Shown: piece by piece, positions 8,577-63,350 of the stretch
Layout of the letters: each line of letters begins with the position of its first letter
Position numbering within the stretch: position 1 is the first letter of the stretch
Source of the DNA: Escherichia phage vB_EcoP_SU10
Length of the DNA: 64,000 nt
Sequence record: NC_027395.1
Reading direction: 5' to 3' (one strand)
Translations under genes and position numbers: made by a program
Notes under the pieces: generated by a model
What the model saw: the letters and a program-made list of their open reading frames with translations, nothing else
Database searches by the model: none
What the model was told of the DNA's origin: nothing

Positions 8577-9629
8577 ATGTCTTTATTTGGAAAATCAGCT
8601 TCTAGCAAAACCACAGTGGCCCCTTCCTCTCAGGTTGATGCCCTGCTGAAGCAGATTGTTGCTAATGCTCAGAATATGCAGAACAACGATCCGGGATTCA
8701 TCTCCCAACAGCTGGCTGGGTTTAATGGCAACCAACAAGGTGCTCTGAACAACTTAGCAGCTTCTACTACTCAGAAGAAACTAGATGATATGTATACACC
8801 ACGTACACAGCAAGGGTTGGACCAATTAAACGCTCTTGCCCAGCAGTATCAGAATATTGTTAATGGTGGTGGAGTAACAGCTGAAGGGGTTAATAACTTT
8901 AGTAAAGGTTTGAATAACTCAGCCCTTGCACAAGCTACTATCAAAGCAGCTTCTAACATCTCTCTTGGCAATGGTTCTGACTCTGGCTCTCTCCGTAGGG
9001 CTGCGGCTCAAGGGGCTGCTTTGAATGGCGCTAACACTAACCTGTCTCGTACTATCAGTGGTAAGAATATGGGTGTAAGTGCTCTGCAACAAGATCAGAA
9101 CTTCCAGAGAGGGTTGCTTGGTGCTCAGTCTGGTTTAGCTGGACAGAACCTCAATCTTGGTGCTCAAGGCGTTCAGGCAACTCAACAAGCTATTCAGAAT
9201 CAGCTGATGGCTGGTAATCTGCAACAGCAACAAGCTCAAGCTCAAGCTGATATTAATTGGCAGAACGCTATTGGCTCTCAGCAGTATGGGTGGAATCAGC
9301 TTAACAACCAACTTAATGTATTAAATAGTGTAAGCCCAATGGCTGGGTATACAATTAAGAATGCTGCTCCGGGGGTTAATACTGGACAACAGCTCCTAGG
9401 TGCTGGTATCACTGGTTTAGGTATTGCAGGTCGTATGGGTGCTTTCTCTCCTAACCAACAGACTCAGAATGCTTGGAGTTCCTATAACAACTCAGGTGGG
9501 CAATCTGGAATGGCTGGTCCTATGATTGGAGGTTCTAATCTTTCTCAACAGAGAGGTCAGTCTAACTGGTTATCCACAGCAGGTAGTAATATCTTAGGTG
9601 GTGTCTTAGGGGCATTTGGAGCAAACTAA
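8577..9629 (+). CDS. Gln/Asn/Gly-rich virion protein (paralog A), internal/ejection protein candidate
   Basis: Low-complexity Q/N/G-rich 350 aa; N-terminus MSLFGKSASSKTT and GFNGNQQGALNNLAAS parallel the next gene. Confidence 0.5.
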   Translation: MSLFGKSASSKTTVAPSSQVDALLKQIVANAQNMQNNDPGFISQQLAGFNGNQQGALNNLAASTTQKKLDDMYTPRTQQGLDQLNALAQQYQNIVNGGGVTAEGVNNFSKGLNNSALAQATIKAASNISLGNGSDSGSLRRAAAQGAALNGANTNLSRTISGKNMGVSALQQDQNFQRGLLGAQSGLAGQNLNLGAQGVQATQQAIQNQLMAGNLQQQQAQAQADINWQNAIGSQQYGWNQLNNQLNVLNSVSPMAGYTIKNAAPGVNTGQQLLGAGITGLGIAGRMGAFSPNQQTQNAWSSYNNSGGQSGMAGPMIGGSNLSQQRGQSNWLSTAGSNILGGVLGAFGAN

Positions 9630-24614: not shown

Positions 24615-25025
24615 TCATCGAATCACCAAAGGCTCTTCAGAGTACACAGGAGCGGCTATTTCTACAGGAGGTGCTGCCCTAAGGTCATTAAGTCTTACAC
24701 CCTTCAGCATCCCATCTAGGTGGTCTTTCTTAGGGATTCCAACAGGGAAGTCGTCAATCCAGATATCTACAAAGAAACCTAACTGGCGACATACGTCATC
24801 TTTCTGAACACCATTACAAAAGATGACAGGGATTTGCAGAGTCTCTGCATCATAGAGGATATCCACGTTATCATAACCATTAGGCTCTGAGAAACGGAAA
24901 GTCACGAATCTTACATCATGTCCATACCCTTTCATCAAACCTATCACATCTCTCCACAGTCGTCTGTCTGCTGTGTAAGTGTCATCATAATCTAAACCAA
25001 TATTCATGTCAAATCCTTTAGACAA
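24615..25025 (-). CDS. HAD-like phosphatase candidate
   Basis: N-terminal IGLDYDDT fits the DxDxT motif I of HAD hydrolases. Confidence 0.4.
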   Translation of the reverse strand: MSKGFDMNIGLDYDDTYTADRRLWRDVIGLMKGYGHDVRFVTFRFSEPNGYDNVDILYDAETLQIPVIFCNGVQKDDVCRQLGFFVDIWIDDFPVGIPKKDHLDGMLKGVRLNDLRAAPPVEIAAPVYSEEPLVIR

Positions 25026-25047
25026 GAAAAGCCGCCCGAAGGCAGCT
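25024..25047 (-). terminator. intrinsic terminator (strand-specific, G-U pair)
   Basis: - strand AGCTGCC-TTCG-GGCGGCT then TTTTCTT; C-A mismatch on + strand. Confidence 0.5.
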
Positions 25048-25239
25048 TCTTATTTAACTATTTACTTTAGCTTCAAGTGTTTCGTTTTCAATACTCAAGT
25101 CAATCACTACACCAGTAAGCCCAACGACTGCTTGGCGAAGGGCGTCTTTACCCATAGAGTGTACTTGAGATAAGAAGAAAGCTTTACCTTCTTCAGTGGA
25201 TAGGGTTTCTTTTAATTCAGAAGCAGTCATTGATATTCC

Positions 25240-49154: not shown

Positions 49155-49326
49155 ACTTACTCCTGTTGTTTACACTCGTCAATAACCCACTGATAAGTGG
49201 ATTGCCCAGAAAAGAAACACTGAATAAATCCAGATGTTCTCTGCGTTACTAGTGCTAGTGAACAAATCACTACCGCTGCTGCTAGCAGTTTTAAATCTAA
49301 TTTAGACATATTTCCTCTCTTTGAAT

Positions 49327-49353
49327 TTAAAAAAGGACTCTCCGAAAAGAGTC
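49327..49353 (-). terminator. intrinsic terminator or attenuator upstream of the amidoligase operon
   Basis: - strand GACTCTT-TTCG-GAGAGTC then CTTTTTT, ~25 nt before the RBS of a small leader ORF. Confidence 0.5.
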
Positions 49354-49535
49354 AAGCTTTAAATACAAAAAGATATTACCCAATATCTGTGGATAACCTG
49401 CTCTTAAAATATCTATCCGACGGATGTTCGAGGAATATTCCTCTCCCTAGCATCGGCCCCATACGGGAAATATATTAAGATTAGGTTAGTTGAGTCAGAA
49501 TAACTCACATAGCCCTCCGAAGAAGGCTATAGATG

Positions 49536-50003
49536 TTACTCTATCTTAACTGAAGGACAATACTTCTCTTTCTTGCTGCGATACATAACAACAATCCAGT
49601 TTGAATCACGACGCTCTTTCTTACGTCGTTTCTTTTCAGCACGAGTTTCATATGTGCTAGTTCGGTGGTCACGATATATTCCACGAAGTTCATAAAATGC
49701 CCAACCACCACCAAACACTACACCAGCCAAAGCAGCCAAAGATGAGGCACCAAGAGCAGGGGCAGCGAACCATGTCCACCAGTAAAAGGTTGACACGTCG
49801 TTGTGCCCGAGAAGTGTCCCACCTACTCCAGTAAGTGCCGCACATATAACAGATAAGAATCCAGACAGTATAACAAAACGCAAAACTGTTCGCCAGAAGT
49901 ATTCACAAAAGTTAGTCATGTTGTCCCAATAGGAATCAGAGAGACTTGACGTAGCTTTGTTGAATCTGTGCAACCATCCGTTCTTATTAACCTTAATCAT
50001 CAT
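49536..50003 (-). CDS. membrane protein
   Basis: Several hydrophobic helices and basic C-terminal tail. Confidence 0.45.
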   Translation of the reverse strand: MMIKVNKNGWLHRFNKATSSLSDSYWDNMTNFCEYFWRTVLRFVILSGFLSVICAALTGVGGTLLGHNDVSTFYWWTWFAAPALGASSLAALAGVVFGGGWAFYELRGIYRDHRTSTYETRAEKKRRKKERRDSNWIVVMYRSKKEKYCPSVKIE

Positions 50004-51532: not shown

Positions 51533-52027
51533 ACATCCTCCAGTTAATTGTTAAAATTATCAGGGGAGTACACTAGCTCTGGGCCACGCTGTAGATATCG
51601 GCCTACCTTCCACAGCTAATCAGCTAATGTACTCTCCTAATAGTTTATGAATAGGGGGAGGGGACGAATCCTCCCTTATCCTATTAATTAATATTGCATG
51701 TAAGATCTAACAATCGGTTGCCTTTGTAGGAATAGGTGTAAAGCCAATCCAGCACTAAACTCCCGCCCCCTTAGTGGGCTGGGTTATTAAAGGGTAACGC
51801 CCTTATGGGCTAGTTACATGAATGTTAGTTTGATAGGAGATCTGAAGTCCTATCTCAAAGGACTCTCGTAAGAATCCTTCACGATATTACTTATTCATTT
51901 TTCGTCGGCTATCTCTCCAAGCCAACCAAGTGTAGGTTTTCAACTCTTCTAAACTTTCTGGAGTGAATAGGTATTCTTTGAAGGTGTCACTAAACCACTC
52001 TAAAAATTCTTCAGTCATAATAACATC

Positions 52028-53328: not shown

Positions 53329-53404
53329 TGGTGCGCCCTACAGGACTCGAACCTGTAACCAATAGCTTAGAAGGCTACTGCTCTATCCATTGAGCTAAGA
53401 GCGC
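53329..53404 (-). tRNA. tRNA-Arg (anticodon UCU)
   Basis: Hand-folded cloverleaf: acceptor GCGCTCT/AGGGCGC, D-arm GCTC-AATGGATA-GAGC, anticodon loop CTTCTAA, T-arm ACAGG-TTCGAGT-CCTGT, encoded CCA. Confidence 0.8.
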
Positions 53405-54056: not shown

Positions 54057-54273
54057 ACTTTACCTTTGATAAAAATATCATTACCACAGACACAGCATGA
54101 ACGAACAACAGTAGCGCCACGCTGAACGATACGAACCTCTTCTTTAACCAGATTGACACGAGCACCACAACAAGGAGAGTTAACATAAGAGTAACCAGCT
54201 TGTGTATTCTTGATTGTTTGCTTAGACATTTGAGCTTCCTCTTGTTAGTTTAAGTAAGAGCTGACCCTTAATT

Positions 54274-54302
54274 AAAACAACAAAGGCCGCCCGAAGGCAG
54301 CC
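54274..54302 (-). terminator. intrinsic terminator (strand-specific, UUCG loop)
   Basis: - strand GGCTGCC-TTCG-GGCGGCC then TTTGTTGTTTT. Confidence 0.55.
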
Positions 54303-54307
54303 TCTCT

Positions 54308-54559
54308 TTATTGACTAACACCACGAATCAGATGATTCTGTAGCATTTCATCTTCTGCATTATACAGGAATGCAAACATCAACTCCTTAGCCACATCTCT
54401 TGAGCAATTAAGACACTTAGAGATTTGCGTTAGTTGCATGTTGCGTTCTGTGTGTTCCATCAAGGCAATGCGAATGATCTCTCGCATACCTATCACATGG
54501 GTTGTCTTAACCGGCATAGGTCCAATTGCCTTGTTTGTTACGGATGGCTGACATTGCAT
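54308..54559 (-). CDS. hypothetical protein
   Basis: 83-aa ORF. Confidence 0.35.
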   Translation of the reverse strand: MQCQPSVTNKAIGPMPVKTTHVIGMREIIRIALMEHTERNMQLTQISKCLNCSRDVAKELMFAFLYNAEDEMLQNHLIRGVSQ

Positions 54560-55005
54560 GAATCCAGAAGCCTTCCAGTTTCAGAGCACCATTAGCTACT
54601 GCATCCATACGTTCAGGGCGGTTCATACGTTTGGTTGATACTTTCATACCTATCTCTCTTTGTTAGTGGAGGCATTATTGCCAGTTGATATAAGGGATAG
54701 CCCTAGTCAGTAGGCTAATCCTGACCGCGTACTCATTGCCGACCTTCTCTGCCTAAGAGTTCAGGTTCTAGAGCTATCTCTTATTCCAACTGGTGAAGAC
54801 TCCCTACCCCTAGGAAGTCTCCTGAATCCCAAACCAATATGTACCCCTACATATTAGAAAGTCTTTCGAAAATTAACAGGTTTTAGTCTAGCACCGGATG
54901 TTCGAGCAAGCTCTCCCTAGCGGTGTGGCATATGCCTGAATTAATAAGTTAATGAGGAACACCCTCACATAGCCCTCTGATAAACACAAGGGCTATAAGT
55001 CGGTG

Positions 55006-55224
55006 TTACTTTTGGGATAAACACAGATCAGGACGTGGCATAACAGTGGTTGATAAACCGAAGACTTCAACAGAACCACTGTTCAGATCGGCGGCCTTAC
55101 ACAAACCGTCAGGAGTTTTATCTTCTAACATCAGCCAGAAACGTCTATCGTAAGAGAAAACATCACCACTTTTAACATCTTCTGCATTTGCATATTTAGG
55201 ATAATCAACTACTTTAATTTCCAT
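55006..55224 (-). CDS. small early protein, GDVF-motif paralog family
   Basis: VKSGDVFSYDRRFWLMLEDKTPDGLCKAADLNSG. Confidence 0.45.
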   Translation of the reverse strand: MEIKVVDYPKYANAEDVKSGDVFSYDRRFWLMLEDKTPDGLCKAADLNSGSVEVFGLSTTVMPRPDLCLSQK

Positions 55225-56233: not shown

Positions 56234-56432
56234 ATTATTTACCCTTTATCAGAGATTAAAAGTAATATTATTTAAGTAAGTTATGTTTAGTAAACTTATT
56301 TTCTAAGAAATTTTCAAAGGGTCTATATACAGAGCATTACCCATAGTTCCAGAATACTACCATCTTTTTCAATAAATTTACTAAGTGATTGGTTTATAAA
56401 GGAATTTAGTTTGTCAAATCTGGCACTAGTGA

Positions 56433-56871: not shown

Positions 56872-56897
56872 AAAAAAGCCCCAGCCGTAGCCGGGGC
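56872..56897 (-). terminator. intrinsic terminator
   Basis: GCCCC ... GGGGC hairpin then TTTTTT on - strand. Confidence 0.45.
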
Positions 56898-56958
56898 AAA
56901 CCTGAAAGCAACACATGACCGTTGCTATAAATACACTCGCAAATGCACTTATAGCAAC

Positions 56959-56981
56959 GCAAAAAGCCGCTCAAAGGCGGC
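56959..56981 (-). terminator. intrinsic terminator
   Basis: AGCCGC-CTTTGA-GCGGCT then TTTTG on - strand. Confidence 0.45.
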
Positions 56982-57063
56982 TATGCGGAAGCTTCAAATG
57001 GGGAGAGGGCACGACGCTACAGAAAGAGCGTCATAGTACTAAAAGAGGGGGGCTATATTCCTA

Positions 57064-57507
57064 CTACTTAACCCTTGCCTCTTTGATGGGGTCAATGTAT
57101 TTTTCAACGCCCCACTTGTGTTTACTATCTGCGTAGAAAACATCAGGTGCACACTGGCTTGTCTTAGGGAAAGCCTGCGGGTCTTTCGTGCTACCCTTAA
57201 ACTTCTGTTTACCACGGGTGCGACCATTACAGAAGATTTCTAACTTCTTCTCTTCTTCTGTTTTAGCGCCCCCGCTCTGTAACAAAGAACGTTTATGATC
57301 AGCTAACAACAACGCATCAGCACGATGGACACGATGACCTACACGTTTTGCCACACTGGAAGGGACATGGGATTCAGCCTCAGCTTTTGCAGCACGACGT
57401 TTTAAACTACGCTTACTGACGTGATTAGTTGCCTTCGGCTTCTCTTTCTCCAGTTCAGAGATAGAAAAACAACGCCCGCCCTTCATGCTGATTTTAGATT
57501 TAGCCAC
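57064..57507 (-). CDS. basic early protein
   Basis: 147 aa, Lys/Arg-rich. Confidence 0.45.
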   Translation of the reverse strand: MAKSKISMKGGRCFSISELEKEKPKATNHVSKRSLKRRAAKAEAESHVPSSVAKRVGHRVHRADALLLADHKRSLLQSGGAKTEEEKKLEIFCNGRTRGKQKFKGSTKDPQAFPKTSQCAPDVFYADSKHKWGVEKYIDPIKEARVK

Positions 57508-57576
57508 AATCTTATTCCTTTTAGTGATAAGTTATATCGGGCAAGCCCATCAAGGTGATAGGCTTGAACAAACAAC

Positions 57577-57786
57577 TTAATCAAGTAAACCGAATGACTT
57601 CCAACTGCGTAGCAGGGTTGTACCATCATCCATAGTTACACATAATTTTAGTAGTTTCTTATTGGCACTACTCACCGTTGTAATTCGTCCGGTTGTACAT
57701 TTACCTTTATTGCTATAAAGATACACTACACGACGACCTAACAAACGAGAGGGAGCTTTCTTAAACTCTGAAATATTAGTGATCAT
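57577..57786 (-). CDS. hypothetical protein
   Basis: 69-aa ORF. Confidence 0.35.
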   Translation of the reverse strand: MITNISEFKKAPSRLLGRRVVYLYSNKGKCTTGRITTVSSANKKLLKLCVTMDDGTTLLRSWKSFGLLD

Positions 57787-58007
57787 AATGCTTGATACCT
57801 TTGAATATGTTCAATACGGGTGGATTGAGCAAATGACGCTTTAACAGCCATTTTCCTAACTTCTTCTTTACGTTGGTTAGTGTGTACAGTATCCCAATGA
57901 CTGTTATCACGTTGGCGCTGTAATATCTTACTACATTTGCGATGGTTTCCCGTGCTGCGATGTTTCTCACAAATAGGACATTTGCCAAAATTATTACTGA
58001 ATATCAT
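57783..58007 (-). CDS. zinc-finger-like small protein
   Basis: GKCPICEKH ... H ... C. Confidence 0.35.
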   Translation of the reverse strand: MIFSNNFGKCPICEKHRSTGNHRKCSKILQRQRDNSHWDTVHTNQRKEEVRKMAVKASFAQSTRIEHIQRYQAL

Positions 58008-58231
58008 TTTCTCAATCCCAACTTTCTTAAGATACGGCCTAACGTTGTTTCTTGCGTGATAATATAGCTGATCGCTTCACGTTCCGATGTTTCAATCTTC
58101 ATTGGTGACGGATACCATTCACCGGTAATAACACATTTACATTCAACGCCATACTTTTTAGATAGGCGGTAATGTTGACCGTTGACAAGATTCCTATAAA
58201 TCGTGGTATGCGTAATTAACATGATCATCAC
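58004..58231 (-). CDS. hypothetical protein
   Basis: 75-aa ORF. Confidence 0.35.
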   Translation of the reverse strand: MMIMLITHTTIYRNLVNGQHYRLSKKYGVECKCVITGEWYPSPMKIETSEREAISYIITQETTLGRILRKLGLRK

Positions 58232-58333
58232 CTTTGATTAAATTCTTTGATTAATGCACTGAATCAATGCACTGATAAAAGAAAAGGCGCTACCCATTAA
58301 GATAGCGCCTTATGTTTATTCAAATTGTCTTAC

Positions 58334-59242
58334 TTATGCTGCCTGACGTGCTGCCATAATCTCAGCCGCTTTACGCAATACTTCTTCTTCTTCTGCTTTC
58401 GCCGCTTGTTCGGTACGGGTAGCAACCGTTGAAGAGATACGACCGCGCAGACTTTCTAACTTCTCCTGCATAGCTGCAACAGTCTTTTCCATTTCATCAG
58501 CGTATGAATCGAGTGATTCTAATTCCTTGCTTGATGCGTTCATCAGGTAGTTATCAGAGATCGCTACCGTTGAGGCCGTGACTTTCTTGATGAGTGAATC
58601 AAAGGACTTTTTAACCTTGCCTACTTCTTCACTTAAGGCAATGGTGTTATCACTAGTTGCGCCGTTGCGCTCATCAGCCAGTAATTTGGCTTCAATACGG
58701 ATTGCATTCAAGCGTTCAACCAAAGCGTAAATATCTTGGTTAAAATCTTCCTTGTTTTTCGCCGGAATTTGCAGGTGTGCCGCCACGTTGTCATTACAAC
58801 CCTTGTAAAAGTTAGGATTATCGACTTCAATTTCACGGCCTAAAGCAAAGTTTTCGAAAGCGTTTGACCAGCGAGCGCGGTTTTGTTCCATTTTGGTTTT
58901 AATTTGCGCTTCTTTCGCGTCTTCTTTAGCTTTCGCCTCACCTTCCAGATTAATCCACTTTTTACGACCATTTGCCGCATCGGTGTTAAACTTGATAGGA
59001 GTTAAGAAAGTGATCGAGGTAGCAATAACATCCATATCACGGAAACGTTCGGTTAACAGGAAGTCAACCGCCGCCTGCAATACATCTAACTTCTTACCAT
59101 TACTGCGGAAGTGCTGTAAGTGCCCTAACAGGAAATTAGAAACATCTTGTTTGATCGCCGCGTTATTGCTACGAATGTTGTTAGCCAGTGCATTAAAACC
59201 AGATTCGTTAACCAGAGTAAAAACTTTAGCCATGATATTCAC
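58334..59242 (-). CDS. early protein, unknown function
   Basis: 302 aa, first gene downstream of three sigma70-like promoters; RBS AAGGTGA. Confidence 0.5.
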   Translation of the reverse strand: MNIMAKVFTLVNESGFNALANNIRSNNAAIKQDVSNFLLGHLQHFRSNGKKLDVLQAAVDFLLTERFRDMDVIATSITFLTPIKFNTDAANGRKKWINLEGEAKAKEDAKEAQIKTKMEQNRARWSNAFENFALGREIEVDNPNFYKGCNDNVAAHLQIPAKNKEDFNQDIYALVERLNAIRIEAKLLADERNGATSDNTIALSEEVGKVKKSFDSLIKKVTASTVAISDNYLMNASSKELESLDSYADEMEKTVAAMQEKLESLRGRISSTVATRTEQAAKAEEEEVLRKAAEIMAARQAA

Positions 59243-60155
59243 CTTTCAATTGTAAGGGCGCTATTGCCCCGCTCTCTATGAGCTTGTTTAAGTCACTATT
59301 AACTTATCTCTAACCACTCACTTTTTAAGTAGTTACAGGTAAGCGAGGCGGTCTTATCAGGAGTTAACCTTGCCGCCTCCTTATCCGTGATGTTTCATCT
59401 GGTATCTTTAATTAGTCGCTATAAACGAAGCCGACCTGATAGCGATGATCAATCATCACAATAAGGCAGTGCGTCCGACTCTAATTAGTTACGTTTATTG
59501 TAACCGTCGGCAATATCGTCTACTTTGCTTTCGCTCTCGCCTATCCTTTTGTATCAACTCTCAATCACTAGCCATCGCCCACAACGGGATGCTATTGTGA
59601 AAGAGTCATTGACCGTCTAATGTTCTGACGTTTTATATCTTTCGGCAAGTTTACTACATAAACCGACTATGTACTTTCATCTTGTGATGAATCTCAAGCC
59701 GTTCACATCGTAAACGTTCACACTAAACCTTATTGTTAAATAGCAATTTGCCACTTTTTAACCACTCCCCGCCGCTCTCAATTGAGCGTTAATTCTTCGG
59801 GCTTGCCTACCCTGATTAACTTCTTTCACTGTAGCGCCTTGTTAGCGATGACCGCCGCTACCCTTAACCGTGGGCGATTAGCTTAAGTCTTTGCGTACAC
59901 TCAATGAATCCGTTTATCAGTGGTGACGTTTCCAGCAAGGGATTGTAAGATTGTTTTCTCTGATAGTTTAGAGAATCTTACACCGTTTTATCTGGTATGT
60001 TATCTGATGGTTATTATCATCTAACATATTCAACCGATATAGGAGAATGTTTAAATTATTAAAGAGCGGTAAATCTGTCAGTGTGCTTTCTCACACTACG
60101 CAACTGTTAGCCGTTGTTACGCTTTCCTTAAGCGGTGATTTGCTTAAGTGTGCTC

Positions 60156-60184
60156 ATTATGAATCATGTTGTTTTCGCTGTCAA
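60156..60184 (-). promoter_or_regulatory. sigma70-type early promoter
   Basis: - strand TTGACA, 17-nt spacer, CATAAT, with upstream A tract. Confidence 0.55.
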
Positions 60185-60313
60185 CCACTTTTTAATCTTT
60201 TTTCGTCGTTCCCGCTATTGGGAGGATATATCAATCAGCTTTATTTGATTGAAGACTAAGCGGTGATGCTTATCTTATGATTCATATTGTTAAAGAGCGG
60301 TTACTACATTTAC

Positions 60314-60341
60314 AGCTTAACACATCGTGTTAGCTTGTCAA
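60314..60341 (-). promoter_or_regulatory. sigma70-type promoter candidate (weak -10)
   Basis: - strand TTGACA, 16 nt, TAAGCT. Confidence 0.3.
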
Positions 60342-60639
60342 CTCTTTTTATCATCTTCTTTTAATTCCTTTCCCTTATCTCGCGTGAATCTATGCGAAAG
60401 GGCAAGATGATAAGTCTGATTTGTCTTTTAGGAATCTAGTGCGCTTTCAAGCATTGACCATTTGAAAGTATCGAACAAATGAGGCTTATTTTGTTGCTCA
60501 TCGTCCGCCTGTTCACGTATGAATCAGGAATCAATTCTAGTGGTCAACTAAGCGCCTTATAGTAATGACGTTCCCGCCACCTGTAAGACAAATCATATTT
60601 TTAAAGAGCTGGATGTTTCACGTCATCGCTGACTATGCT

Positions 60640-60668
60640 CACTATATATCAGGCTGTTTTCGGTGTCA
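60640..60668 (-). promoter_or_regulatory. sigma70-type early promoter
   Basis: - strand TTGACA, 17-nt spacer, TATAGT, upstream AAAAAGAG. Confidence 0.6.
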
Positions 60669-61074
60669 ATACTCTTTTTAAGAATATTTTCACTTTCTAG
60701 CCTGATTTTTAAAGAGCGTAGCACTTTCATTGTGCGTCTTACCGTCGGTATTCCTACCGCTCCCCGTTGAAGCCTTTTACCGTGATGCTAATCACCTATC
60801 GAGGAGTTTTTACTACTTGTTGTTACTTACTGCTTACTACGGGATTCATATTACTATACAGGAAAACCCTGTCAATACCCTTTTTTCAAATTATTTTATA
60901 TCTCACTGTTTTATAAAGGAATTTATTTTAGAGATGACAGGAACTACAAAGAAATCAGAAGAGAGAGGAACGGGAGCGCGTGATACATCATAGGAAACAG
61001 CCTGTAAAGCAATAATAAGCGGCCTATAACGCATCACAACGAGCTAAAAGGGAGTAAGGTATACAATCACCTTA

Positions 61075-61102
61075 GAAAAGAAAAAAGCCTCATAGTGAGG
61101 CT
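61075..61102 (-). terminator. intrinsic terminator
   Basis: AGCCTCA-CTA-TGAGGCT then TTTTTTCTTTT on - strand. Confidence 0.55.
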
Positions 61103-61179
61103 TATAGGAAGGATTTAAAGCATTAGATACATTATGACCATAGGCATGACTACGGCACAATACAGGAGAAAGATTAAGC

Positions 61180-61545
61180 CTATGGATTTACACATTGCCC
61201 TAAACCGGATGCTATTTCGTTCATAGATTCATCAAAGAGTGTTAACGATGAGCGCATCAAGTGATCGATCGTGATTTGTTTACCAGTGGTTTCATTCACC
61301 AACAGAATAGTTTTATCATATGATTGTACATGATCGAAATCGTTTACATGTAAAATAATAACTTTAGGTGACTTTTTACCAGTTTCATAGTCTTCTATAA
61401 GATAGGTACACTGTAAGCCGTCAATCGTAGCAGGGGAAAACGTTGCAGCCTTTACGCTACCCATAGATGACAACAGGACACCTAACAGAAGAACGACCAG
61501 AAAGAAGCCTACGAACACTTTTACCACAAATTTGATAATACCCAT
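61180..61545 (-). CDS. secreted/membrane protein
   Basis: N-terminal hydrophobic leader FVGFFLVVLLLGVLL. Confidence 0.4.
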   Translation of the reverse strand: MGIIKFVVKVFVGFFLVVLLLGVLLSSMGSVKAATFSPATIDGLQCTYLIEDYETGKKSPKVIILHVNDFDHVQSYDKTILLVNETTGKQITIDHLMRSSLTLFDESMNEIASGLGQCVNP

Positions 61546-61641
61546 GAAAATAACACCTATAGTCAGAGAATGTAAGAATAAAGCATATCAGCGACGAATA
61601 ACGCCACTGTAACAACGAACAAGCAACGCCAGAAATAATCA

Positions 61642-61920
61642 TTAATCATCATTGCTATCCTCGCCAAAGAATGCTACGCTAATTTGTTCCACTTCTTCCA
61701 GTGACAGAAGAATCCCACGCTGGGCTAAATACTTCCCAACAGTTAGATAATCTTGCACTAAGCAGACAATAGGAAAGCGTATATTTTGTATCTCACCTTT
61801 GGAAAGAAAAGACAAATAGCCAACGTCGATTGATTCATCAAAGGATAGTGTAACGCCACCGTAATTATGCGTATCAATTAACGCAATAGTTTCATTTCCC
61901 ATAACGTTTCCAATCCTCAT
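61642..61920 (-). CDS. hypothetical early protein
   Basis: 92-aa ORF. Confidence 0.35.
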   Translation of the reverse strand: MRIGNVMGNETIALIDTHNYGGVTLSFDESIDVGYLSFLSKGEIQNIRFPIVCLVQDYLTVGKYLAQRGILLSLEEVEQISVAFFGEDSNDD

Positions 61921-62122
61921 AATGATTAACTAGTGCCTGATAATCGTCAGATGATAACTCACCGCCTAAATAGGCAACGGTTATGCGTGCTTTGTATTCT
62001 GACAAACTGCATAGCGCGGAAGCGGATAACCTGCTTTCGCCATAACATCCTAGCACTTCAACGATACAACCGTTTAAAGATACTGATTTATTAATCACGA
62101 TATGGTTAGCCATTAATATCAT
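61892..62122 (-). CDS. hypothetical early protein
   Basis: 76-aa ORF. Confidence 0.3.
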   Translation of the reverse strand: MILMANHIVINKSVSLNGCIVEVLGCYGESRLSASALCSLSEYKARITVAYLGGELSSDDYQALVNHYEDWKRYGK

Positions 62123-62369
62123 CCTTAATTAGCCCATGATTGAGCAGGTTAGCCAGTGATAAGCCACCGTCAAAATAAACAGAACGAAAATCAGCGCGGG
62201 TAATTTCAAGGCCAGCAAACTTCAACCAGTTTTTGGCTGATTGAAAATCCATTTTGCAAAAAGTAATGATAGGAACAGTAAGCTGACCATCGAGCGTATT
62301 AAACATGATAGCGGTATCGCCAATAAAACAAGAAAAGCCACTAGATAATCTAATTTCTTTAATAGCCAT
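62106..62369 (-). CDS. hypothetical early protein
   Basis: 87-aa ORF. Confidence 0.35.
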   Translation of the reverse strand: MAIKEIRLSSGFSCFIGDTAIMFNTLDGQLTVPIITFCKMDFQSAKNWLKFAGLEITRADFRSVYFDGGLSLANLLNHGLIKDDING

Positions 62370-62405
62370 TATTTATACTCCCAAAAGATTGGCAAATTAA
62401 TTTAT

Positions 62406-63278
62406 TCACTTACTAGCCTTAATACAGTTGGCTAAATTAACGTGAACGGTATAAACAGCATTATCCGCGTTATTGTAAACAGTCGTGGCGATCATCGACT
62501 CATTGATCGGGCCATAGCTAACAAGGTTAGTAACGGCTTTAACGTCTTCATAACGTTGTACAGTGCCGAAAGTCACCATATCCGCATCGTTATCAGTACG
62601 CTTAAGCACTAAATCACTGTTAGGCTGATTATCTAACGTTTTAGATTGAAAGAGAACGCCATCATTAGTAACGTTGCTAAATTTCATCTTTAGCACGATA
62701 TTATTGCCGTCACTATCCGCACCGTTGCAAATCATCCAACCCTTATTGATGGAACTAGCGAAAACATCAGCGGCATCAGTTGCAGGAGTAGGACTAGCGA
62801 TAGCCTTATCAGAAAGAGATGTGACCAGTGCACTAACACCAATAGCTGCAACCAGTGCATAACTTGCCAGATTAACAGACTTCATAATCTTACTTGCAAC
62901 AGTAGGCTTGATTGGCTGTTTCTTGTTTTTCTTATTCCATGCTTCAACCATGACAGACAAGCGGGATAATTCAGCTTTCACATCGCGGCATGACTCAGGC
63001 CAATCCTTCTGATTCCAGCTATCTAAATTTGCTTGAATGTAGCAATTAATAGCGTCCTGCATATCGGTAAAACCGTTCTCTTTGAACGTGCTTTCATCTT
63101 CACACTGTAAAGCGTTCGCAGTAGAGTTAATGATCAAGCAAGCCAGCATTACAGAGTTTTTGAATCCTTTACGTGCACTTTCGTTTTCCATCCACGCATC
63201 AGGACTACCAACGGTTAAGCCTAAAGAGGAAAGGCTTTCGTTTGCTTTGTTCAAGTGGTTAATTGCTACTTTAGACAT
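62406..63278 (-). CDS. early membrane protein
   Basis: 290 aa, central TM helix; sigma70-like promoter ~50 nt upstream. Confidence 0.45.
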   Translation of the reverse strand: MSKVAINHLNKANESLSSLGLTVGSPDAWMENESARKGFKNSVMLACLIINSTANALQCEDESTFKENGFTDMQDAINCYIQANLDSWNQKDWPESCRDVKAELSRLSVMVEAWNKKNKKQPIKPTVASKIMKSVNLASYALVAAIGVSALVTSLSDKAIASPTPATDAADVFASSINKGWMICNGADSDGNNIVLKMKFSNVTNDGVLFQSKTLDNQPNSDLVLKRTDNDADMVTFGTVQRYEDVKAVTNLVSYGPINESMIATTVYNNADNAVYTVHVNLANCIKASK

Positions 63279-63322
63279 TTGATATTCCTTCTGGTTGATG
63301 AAAACTACAAACTACACTCGCA

Positions 63323-63350
63323 ACTATATATTAAAGGAAAAGGCTGTCAA
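63323..63350 (-). promoter_or_regulatory. sigma70-type early promoter
   Basis: - strand TTGACA, 16 nt, TATAGT. Confidence 0.5.

Follow-up and report, generated by a model that had tools for sequence, protein, structure and literature searches.

A conserved multi-helix RNA module at open reading frame ends in the early transcripts of phiEco32-like phages

Introduction

What kind of element is repeated just behind two genes in the early region of Escherichia phage vB_EcoP_SU10? The stretch analyzed here (the window) comprises 64,000 nucleotides (nt) of record NC_027395.1 and belongs to a phiEco32-like podophage (Kuravirus). The original prediction, made from the letters alone, had placed a conserved intergenic element at 49420-49530 (copy 1) and at 54895-54996 (copy 2), each with two hairpins, and had suggested a structured RNA or a protein-binding site such as an RNase III processing site. 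Here we show that the two copies are paralogs of one ~120-nt structured RNA module. The comparisons firmly establish a conserved multi-helix RNA under purifying selection, located at the ends of open reading frames (ORFs) in early transcripts. We then weigh what this RNA may do, including a tentative role for copy 1 in pairing with a host mRNA.

Results

Two copies of one fold on the minus strand

Read on the minus strand, the three blocks noted as shared (CTCGAACATCCG, GCTAGGGAGAG and AGGGCTATGTGAG) were exact and collinear in both copies, and a pattern search of the window found each at those two places only. The strand read originally was the opposite of the structured, transcribed one. The ORFs around both copies all lie on the minus strand, and on that strand the copies do stand right after gene stops, as had been claimed (upstream ORF stops at 49536-49538 for copy 1 and 55006-55008 for copy 2). 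The location given for the copies was right, with true limits that are slightly wider (49413-49540 and 54892-55010). In both, the module of ~120 nt is made of a short 5' helix (P1) and four hairpins (H1 to H4). The two hairpins named originally are real and correspond to H1 (ATAGCC...GGCTAT) and to the inner stem of H4 (GAGGAATATTCCTC / GAGCAAGCTC), but H2, H3 (covarying), the outer stem of H4 and P1 had been overlooked. Since this outer stem exists, two of the earlier blocks are the two strands of one 7x7 internal loop. The parts of the module are as follows.

49537-49540, minus strand: 5' arm of P1 in copy 1, the AGUA of AGUAAC, which overlaps the upstream UAA and pairs with UAUU in the H2 loop (49499-49502)
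49509-49530, minus strand: H1 of copy 1, AUAGCCUUC-UUCG-GAGGGCUAU, with a cUUCGg tetraloop and one U·G pair
49491-49507, minus strand: H2 of copy 1, UGAGU-UAUUCUG-ACUCA
49468-49490, minus strand: linker of copy 1, ACUAACCUAAUCUUAAUAUAUUU, which pairs with the tail (UAACCU/AGGUUA and UCUUA/UAAGA)
49458-49467, minus strand: H3 of copy 1, CCC-GUAU-GGG
49417-49456, minus strand: H4 of copy 1, with outer stem CCGAUG/CGUCGG, loop strands at 49444-49450 and 49423-49429, and inner hairpin at 49430-49443
54892-55010, minus strand: copy 2 of the module, 103.9 bits with the covariance model described below
55003-55007, minus strand: 5' arm of P1 in copy 2, AACAC, which overlaps the UAA stop at 55006-55008
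54969-54996, minus strand: H1 of copy 2
54953-54967, minus strand: H2 of copy 2
54937-54952, minus strand: linker of copy 2
54927-54936, minus strand: H3 of copy 2
54892-54925, minus strand: H4 of copy 2, with the same internal loop

The base of H1 is AUAGCC/GGCUAU as RNA, and its upper part varies. H2 (UGAGx...xCUCA) stands immediately beside H1 and is followed by the AU-rich linker. H3 reads CCC-GUAU-GGG in copy 1, GGC-AUAU-GCC in copy 2 and GCC-GUAU-GGC in Salmonella phage 7-11. The outer stem of H4 occurs as CCGAUG/CGUCGG, CACCG/CGGUG or UUCGGUG/CGCCGAA, and it encloses a symmetric, invariant 7x7 internal loop (CUAGGGA/GAACAUC) and a small inner hairpin. This invariant loop is a plausible protein-binding site; it fits neither the kink-turn nor the sarcin-ricin consensus. 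A likeness of H3 to CRISPR repeats of type I-E or I-F was limited to the 3-bp stem and was discarded.

Three observations fixed the strand and the nature of the element. H1 of the relatives is closed by UUCG, UACG, UCCG or CCCG, which are RNA-specific stable tetraloops, or by a long loop of the copy 2 type, and the UNCG/YNCG tetraloops appear on the minus strand only. G·U pairs occupied 34 of the 451 cells in the alignment called A2 below and 59 cells in another, A3; the plus strand would give A·C mismatches there. No coding potential was found, with no ORF of more than 33 codons across either copy. Therefore, the element is an RNA read in gene direction. Small ORFs are annotated across the copies in some records (Bas88_0103, Bas87_0109 and calls of "hypothetical protein"). 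They are probably mis-annotations of the RNA element, given the covariation pattern and their absence from the window.

The module starts at the stop codon of the upstream ORF or at most 9 nt past it. P1 holds the upstream UAA in the window, and in phiEco32 and 7-11 the upstream ORF ends 5-9 nt earlier, so ribosomes finish translation right at the border of the fold. Stop codons are crowded directly before the module, for example, in UAAUAAGUAA and in UAG..UAG..UGA. In copy 2, P1 and H2 may be alternative states, as they are hard to hold together when P1 would pair the whole 5-nt loop of H2.

Covariation and conservation of the helices

Across alignments of 21-32 sequences, ~99% of the modelled pairs formed, compared with 30-49% when the partners were slid. 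For alignment A2 (21 sequences), 99.8% of the 451 cells paired, against 86.5% after shuffling and 33-46% with slid partners, and eight pairs had changes on both sides. The covariation score was 0.369 versus 0.138, and none of 500 shuffles reached the observed score; because the sequences are related, this count is not a probability, and it is the slid-partner control together with the number of distinct pair types that argues for the helices being real. In a second, independent set aligned to the model, with 28 distinct sequences including metagenomic contigs, 99.3% of the cells paired. The proposal of a structured RNA with covariation was thus strongly borne out, with pairing far above the slid-partner controls and with compensatory changes.

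Each helix contributed to this pattern. H2, which MAFFT had misaligned, was parsed directly in 30 distinct instances, where its fourth pair was U-A, C-G or G-C depending on the lineage or copy. In H3, GC and CG were swapped at two of the three pairs across copies and clades, and the outer stem of H4 had three pairs with both sides changed. P1 of the copy-1-type modules was AGUA/UAUU, AGUG/UAUU with a G·U pair (KBNP1711) or AGUG/CAUU with a G-C pair (EP335). P1 of the copy-2-type modules was AACAC/GUGUU (6 cases), AACAU/AUGUU (4 cases) or AACAU/GUGUU (4 cases), and the C·A combination never occurred.

Covariation also extended to non-canonical pairs. The H4 loop positions beside the inner stem were (A,G) in 16 instances, (C,A) in 12, (A,A) in 2 and (C,G) in none, and both main states, (A,G) and (C,A), were present in all three clades. 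As sheared pairs, A·G, A·A and C·A are nearly isosteric, and a tandem G·A/A·G motif would then stack on the inner stem at this end of the loop.

Between Kuravirus and the 7-11-like phages, the module was 72-74% identical, while the ORFs in common reached only ~27-32%. Such retention between groups with little other similarity argues for an important function at the RNA level early in infection.

Distribution in two phage groups

Among 50,697 phage records, blastn found copy 1 in 102 and copy 2 in 97. The matches were Kuravirus and allied phages of Escherichia coli and Shigella, together with Salmonella 7-11-like phages, which had copy 1 only; ~100 Kuravirus genomes carry two copies, and the 7-11-like phages carry one. 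The search for further copies that had been suggested was also made with a covariance model built on 21 sequences, in which true copies scored 98-138 bits. The relatives carry the module, and the window holds only the two copies plus a weak third candidate. The model found one copy in 7-11-type genomes and no copy in Cronobacter phage GAP52, another relative of 7-11. In IMG/VR (one strict and two loose pattern scans, 73 loci screened with the model), only contigs of Kuravirus and 7-11 type were real and the others were chance matches. A metagenome scan gave the same two phage groups only.

At the gathering threshold, Rfam 15 recognized only a tRNA in the whole window. With permissive filters, the best E values were at least 1.3 on copy 1 and at least 2.5 on the copy 2 region, far below gathering scores. 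A tRNA- or tmRNA-like identity was rejected, since ARAGORN and Rfam gave only tRNA-Arg(UCU) at 53329-53404 on the minus strand, a single tRNA gene among small ORFs of the early operon. Our literature search found no paper that mentions the element. By kind, the module is probably a phage noncoding regulatory RNA, of a new family that matches no curated one and has an unexpected connection to the DnaA/nrdD regulatory site of the host. In the record of Salmonella phage 7-11, an unannotated gap of 700 nt after gp135 (82.1-82.2 kb) has two T-arm-like sequences (GGTTCGAATCC and GGTTCGACTCC), which suggests tRNA genes missing from the RefSeq annotation.

Several known signals were tried and rejected. 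The middle/late promoter consensus of phiEco32 gp36 is tAATGTAtA (PMC8948821), and it was absent in or near either copy at up to one mismatch. A sigma-70-like site in copy 1 (CTGACT-18-TATATT) was rejected as a promoter because it is not conserved in copies of the ECBP2 or 7-11 type. A lambda-like boxA (UGCUCUUA) was found only on the antisense (plus) strand.

Copy 1 belongs to a larger unit with its own terminator

Conservation of copy 1 did not stop at H4 but ran 90 nt further, up to an intrinsic terminator. The features of this larger unit are the following.

49329-49540, minus strand: whole copy-1 unit (~210 nt), made of the module, a tail with a double DnaA box and the intrinsic terminator, between the phi32_92-like stop and the ribosome-binding site (RBS) of the phi32_90-like ORF
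49329-49353, minus strand: intrinsic terminator, GACUCUUUUCGGAGAGUC followed by CUUUUUU, with a conserved, covarying 7-bp stem
49387-49408, minus strand: nrdD-type double DnaA box, tTTAAGAGCAggTTATCCACAg, which as RNA is antisense to the 5' untranslated region (UTR) of E. coli nrdD

The unit was conserved end to end in Kuravirus and the Salmonella 7-11-like phages. When 13 full-length copy-1 units were folded with RNAalifold, 47 pairs were obtained, 11 of them with compensatory changes, and 99.3% of the cells paired. The hairpin homologous to the terminator is annotated as a terminator in phage 7-11. Copy 1 thus ends, as expected of a small RNA (sRNA), in an intrinsic terminator with a U tract. 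A pairing of H2 with the terminator, of the attenuator kind, did not covary and was dropped.

A long-range helix joins the linker (UAACCU, UCUUA) to the tail (AGGUUA, UAAGA) and closes a junction that contains H3 and H4. Three of its pairs were changed on both sides, and U·G wobbles occurred in the 7-11 group. This pairing explains why the linker is conserved in copies of the copy 1 type and not in copy 2.

The tail of copy 1 matches the leader of host nrdD

When the copy-1 unit was compared with 5,426 complete E. coli genomes by BLAST, 5,423 were matched, once each (one genome at two places), over 34-42 nt at 86-91% identity. The site matched was the 5' UTR of nrdD, the anaerobic ribonucleotide reductase gene, from -14 to -55 relative to the AUG; with one gap, the similarity reaches -10, beside the GGAG Shine-Dalgarno sequence. 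The RNA-sense strand of the phage is the strand opposite nrdD, so that the nrdD-like tail (49368-49412, minus strand) is in antisense orientation. A second sRNA hallmark, significant complementarity to an mRNA near its RBS, is therefore present (nrdD -14 to -55). The predicted duplex of tail and leader had an energy of -50 kcal/mol, compared with -21 ± 3 kcal/mol in 1,000 shuffles.

The matched nrdD site, tTTAAGAACAggTTATCCACAg, is a "double DnaA box" bound by DnaA in chromatin immunoprecipitation sequencing (ChIP-seq) (PMC11317965). The phage sequence has the same composition, a strong box TTATCCACA with a weaker 9-mer 2-3 bp upstream in the same orientation: at 49388-49407 it reads TTAAGAGCA-gg-TTATCCACA, compared with TTAAGAACA-gg-TTATCCACA in nrdD. 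All three phage clades had the strong box in perfect, unchanged form. In Kuravirus, the "gg" spacer and the weak box were kept as well, while the weak box was degenerate in the 7-11 group (variants of this region were AAGAGCAGG, GAGAAUAGG, AAGAACAGG, UAAGACAGG and GAAGACUGG). The departures of Kuravirus and 7-11 phages from perfect antisense were transitions, which would give G·U pairs with the host leader. On the host side, the box CUGUGGAUAACCUGUU is kept in nrdD leaders across Enterobacterales, and the flank CCCAAUUUCUGUGG (CCCAAU.UCUGUGG) is specific to E. coli and is matched in Kuravirus by CCCAAUAUCUGUGG.

The window as a whole held 31 near-consensus DnaA boxes (up to one mismatch) where 18.5 ± 4.6 were expected, and 0 of 100 shuffles reached 31. 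The only other perfect box was at 9570-9578 on the plus strand. GC skew gave no inflection or origin signal at 49.4 kb.

Copy 2 and a possible third region have other 3' sequences

Downstream of the module, copy 2 and a third ORF-free region differ from copy 1.

54648-54891, minus strand: 3' extension of copy 2, ~240 nt, specific to copy 2, with no ORF and with two hairpins that have UAGGGGUA loops at ~54790-54860
51779-51884, minus strand: possible degenerate third paralog, with H1-like (UACG-capped) and H2-like hairpins, an ACUAAC linker and an H3-like GCCC-AUAA-GGGC, and no H4 loop

The extension of copy 2 was conserved, with compensatory stem changes among the window, phiEco32, NJ01 and ECBP2. 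Within it, AGGGCUAU occurs a second time (54697-54704) and could form pairs with the 5' strand of H1 in copy 2. The third candidate lies in a long ORF-free intergenic region of the early block (51533-51886, minus strand) that has stop codons at its start and repeats the layout of H1, H2, linker and H3 in its first ~105 nt. It scored 15.6 bits with the covariance model (E = 0.27 over 142 kb and 8e-4 in a local search), and the match was also found in phiEco32. Judged by sequence, it is a possible degenerate paralog of the module. Further on, the same region has a hairpin with a G-rich loop, GGGGGCGGGAG.

Genomic setting

Both copies lie within the leftward block of early and middle genes, as described for phiEco32 (PMC8948821). 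The sequence flanking copy 1 and copy 2 was 99% and 96-98% identical, respectively, to that of vB_EcoP-CHD5UKE1, Bas91 and other phages. The neighbouring genes are listed below.

49536-50003, minus strand: phi32_92-like ORF, upstream of copy 1
49157-49309, minus strand: phi32_90-like ORF, downstream of copy 1
55006-55224, minus strand: phi32_113-like ORF, upstream of copy 2
54507-54647, minus strand: phi32_112-like ORF, downstream of copy 2

The ORF upstream of copy 1 varies among relatives, and the module adjoins different ORFs in different phages. The 216-nt phi32_91 gene of phiEco32 is absent from the window, with a 224-bp insertion/deletion directly upstream of copy 1 (49536-49545 in the window), and still other ORFs are found at this place in Bas93, EP335 and the ECBP2-type phages. 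These variable neighbours indicate recombination breakpoints at the module's 5' border.

Near-consensus sigma-70 promoters (TTGACA-16/17-TATAGT) are clustered at 60156-63350 on the minus strand and are probably the early promoters. Strong terminator-like hairpins follow them on the same strand at 56878-61103, well upstream of copy 2; those preceding copy 2 are at 61103, 58311, 56982 and 56897. The early region also has an AT-rich direct repeat of 48 nt (56365-56412 and 60882-60929, 77% identity). A nearly identical pair of terminator hairpins (GCCGCCCGAAGGCAGC) occurs at 25017-25050 and 54272-54305, 29 kb apart.

Discussion

A regulatory RNA body with a host-directed tail as the preferred explanation

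The explanation that we favor, though tentatively, is that phage regulatory RNAs have the module as their stable, partner-binding body and that the copy-1 RNA pairs with the nrdD leader. The module would form the nuclease-resistant, factor-docking body of RNAs left from, or cut out of, the early polycistronic transcript, and its invariant H4 loop would bind a protein or RNA partner common to all copies. In the case of copy 1, the RNA would be ~210 nt long, with the module as its body and the intrinsic terminator as its end. The linker, which is similar to the nrdD leader and would serve as an internal mimic of the target, would keep the 3' tail in a helix and leave UCCACAGAUAUUGGG free as a toehold. 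The tail would then pair with ~40 nt of the host nrdD 5' UTR (-10/-14 to -55, beside the Shine-Dalgarno sequence) and alter the translation or stability of the mRNA for anaerobic ribonucleotide reductase. Copy 2 would have the same body with a different 3' extension and a putative partner.

Several points weigh against this explanation. In phage pSal-SNUABM-01, little of the tail is kept beyond the strong box. About equally good duplexes are predicted with the nrdD leaders of many Enterobacteriaceae, and host specificity is therefore weak. By prediction, most of the antisense stretch is engaged in pairs inside the RNA. The region similar to nrdD is also a double DnaA box, so that selection could act at the DNA level instead, and a motive for a phage to repress nrdD is not obvious. 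As for copy 2, no terminator was found in its extension and it continues into the next gene; a stand-alone RNA would therefore need processing. BLAST detected no host match for copy 2 or the third region, where matches shorter than ~22 nt would escape.

A bolder form of the proposal, which we consider unlikely, sees an RNA family of virulent phages in which one common pseudoknotted scaffold is fitted with interchangeable 3' "warheads." In copy 1, a toehold would gate antisense regulation through the DnaA-box segment of the nrdD leader, while the phage DNA, multiplied by replication, would act as a high-affinity sponge for DnaA. The host would be unable to mutate the nrdD target because DnaA must bind there, and one 40-bp sequence would rewire nucleotide supply in the host through RNA and DNA alike.

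Alternative explanations

The alternative that survives best, although we regard it as doubtful, is a cis-acting intercistronic element for processing or stability, in which the AU-rich linker is a cleavage site for RNase E, or the linker:tail helix of copy 1 is one for RNase III. H1 and H2 would protect the 3' end of the upstream mRNA and H3 and H4 the 5' end of the downstream mRNA, by analogy with the early RNase III sites of phage T7. The layout fits: one long early operon contains two or three paralogs at intervals, each directly after a stop; the AU-rich, single-stranded linker has very stable UNCG-capped hairpins on both sides; copy 2 is continuous with the next gene; and copy 1 has a long-range helix of 11-17 bp. 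The hairpins themselves are too short for RNase III, whose substrates, such as the T7 early sites, have roughly two helical turns (~20 bp) of double-stranded RNA (dsRNA), usually with one internal loop. H1 has 9-11 bp, and H4 has 5-7 bp, the 7x7 loop and 3-5 bp, so the original suggestion of an RNase III site at these hairpins was not supported. The linker:tail helix (~11-17 bp with a small internal loop) is the only part nearing such a substrate, and copy 2 has none. Processing also leaves unexplained the invariant 7x7 loop with its non-canonical covariation, the nrdD match and the terminator right after copy 1, and the linker sequence that would be cut is not kept in copy 2.

It is rather improbable that the functional object in copy 1 is DNA, that is, a high-affinity nrdD-type double DnaA box serving as a sponge, a roadblock or part of an origin, with the RNA structure unrelated or accessory. 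The perfect strong box in three clades, the weak box and "gg" spacer of the ChIP-verified nrdD site in Kuravirus, and the enrichment of DnaA boxes in the window speak for it. It would account for only ~22 bp of copy 1 and for nothing of copy 2 or of H1 to H4. The weak box is not kept in the 7-11 group, these bases covary as parts of an RNA helix that includes U·G wobbles, the skew has no inflection at 49.4 kb, and a single box is no origin. The antisense and DnaA-site readings of the tail are not mutually exclusive; we moderately favor the RNA reading, since these bases are also under constraint as part of an RNA helix and the similarity to nrdD continues into flanks specific to the host.

Processive antitermination by an RNA like putL and putR of phage HK022 is a poor candidate. 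The nascent module would bind RNA polymerase and allow readthrough of downstream terminators, such as the one 60 nt after copy 1. Terminators do follow both copies (49353-49336 and 54305-54282), no promoter-like site was seen between the copy 1 terminator and the following genes, and two paralogous multi-hairpin RNAs in early operons, with covarying stems and conserved unpaired nucleotides, would suit such a role. A put RNA is promoter proximal, whereas the sigma-70-like promoters lie at ~60.2-63.4 kb with terminator-like hairpins between them and copy 2, which weakens this explanation. Four hairpins plus P1 are unlike the two-hairpin put RNA, one upstream copy should be enough, and neither sequence nor Rfam lends support.

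A functionless selfish or recombination-boundary repeat (T4 PeSL-like or like a miniature inverted-repeat transposable element) kept similar by gene conversion is scarcely credible: gene content beside the module does differ among relatives, including the 224-bp insertion/deletion, and copy 1 of the ECBP2 group has a copy-2-type H1 that suggests exchange between copies, but each genome has no more than two or three copies, their syntenic positions are fixed, only two phage groups have them, and the extent of covariation, compensatory as well as non-canonical, points to selection on the RNA fold.

Comparison with known systems

The T7 early RNase III signals (R0.3-R1.3) are likewise repeated, partly conserved RNAs with stems and internal loops, located between genes of the host-transcribed early operon of a podophage, and they are thought to set mRNA ends and stability. 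They are single hairpins of ~20 bp, whereas the module has four short hairpins and a leader-loop helix with no two-turn dsRNA in its shared part; its internal loop is symmetric (7x7) and invariant. HK022 putL and putR resemble it as two paralogous structured RNAs of early transcripts with covarying stems, conserved unpaired residues and downstream terminators. In contrast to them, the module is larger, built differently, not promoter proximal and preceded by terminator-like hairpins, and homology cannot be shown.

Copy 1 shares with base-pairing sRNAs that derive from 3' UTRs or end in a terminator, and with phage or prophage antisense RNAs (such as DicF, P1 C4 and P4 CI), a U-tract terminator and long complementarity to the translation-initiation region of an mRNA. 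Unlike them, it has a very large structured 5' body, its seed is sequestered by a mimic of the target within the same RNA, its source is a virulent phage, its target would be a host DnaA-box leader, and it gives no Rfam match to C4. Compared with the nrdD double DnaA box (tTTAAGAACAggTTATCCACAg), the phage site agrees at 21 of 22 bases and has the same unusual 2-nt "gg" spacer. That site is grouped with sites of the datA, oriC R4, purH and polA type (PMC11317965). The phage site differs in being inverted relative to transcription, in lying within a covarying RNA helix and in that its weak box is not conserved in the Salmonella phage clade. Flavivirus exoribonuclease-resistant RNAs are also duplicated compact modules that begin directly behind a stop codon and have their 5' end anchored in a loop further downstream; as there is no sequence similarity or established similarity of fold, this is an analogy only, and to our knowledge E. 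coli has no Xrn1-type exonuclease.

Significance

phiEco32 is a well-studied model of phage transcription, yet these elements of ~120-210 nt are unannotated or mis-annotated as small ORFs in ~100 genomes. The module is among the best-conserved noncoding sequences common to two phage groups that have almost no other nucleotide similarity, and its invariant loop, where A·G and C·A replace each other, offers a defined starting point in the search for the binding partner. Should copy 1 indeed act on nrdD or DnaA, it would provide a rare example of a virulent coliphage whose noncoding RNA or DNA decoy reprograms deoxyribonucleotide synthesis or replication control in the host. Such an action would matter for phage growth in the anaerobic gut and for therapeutic Kuraviruses.

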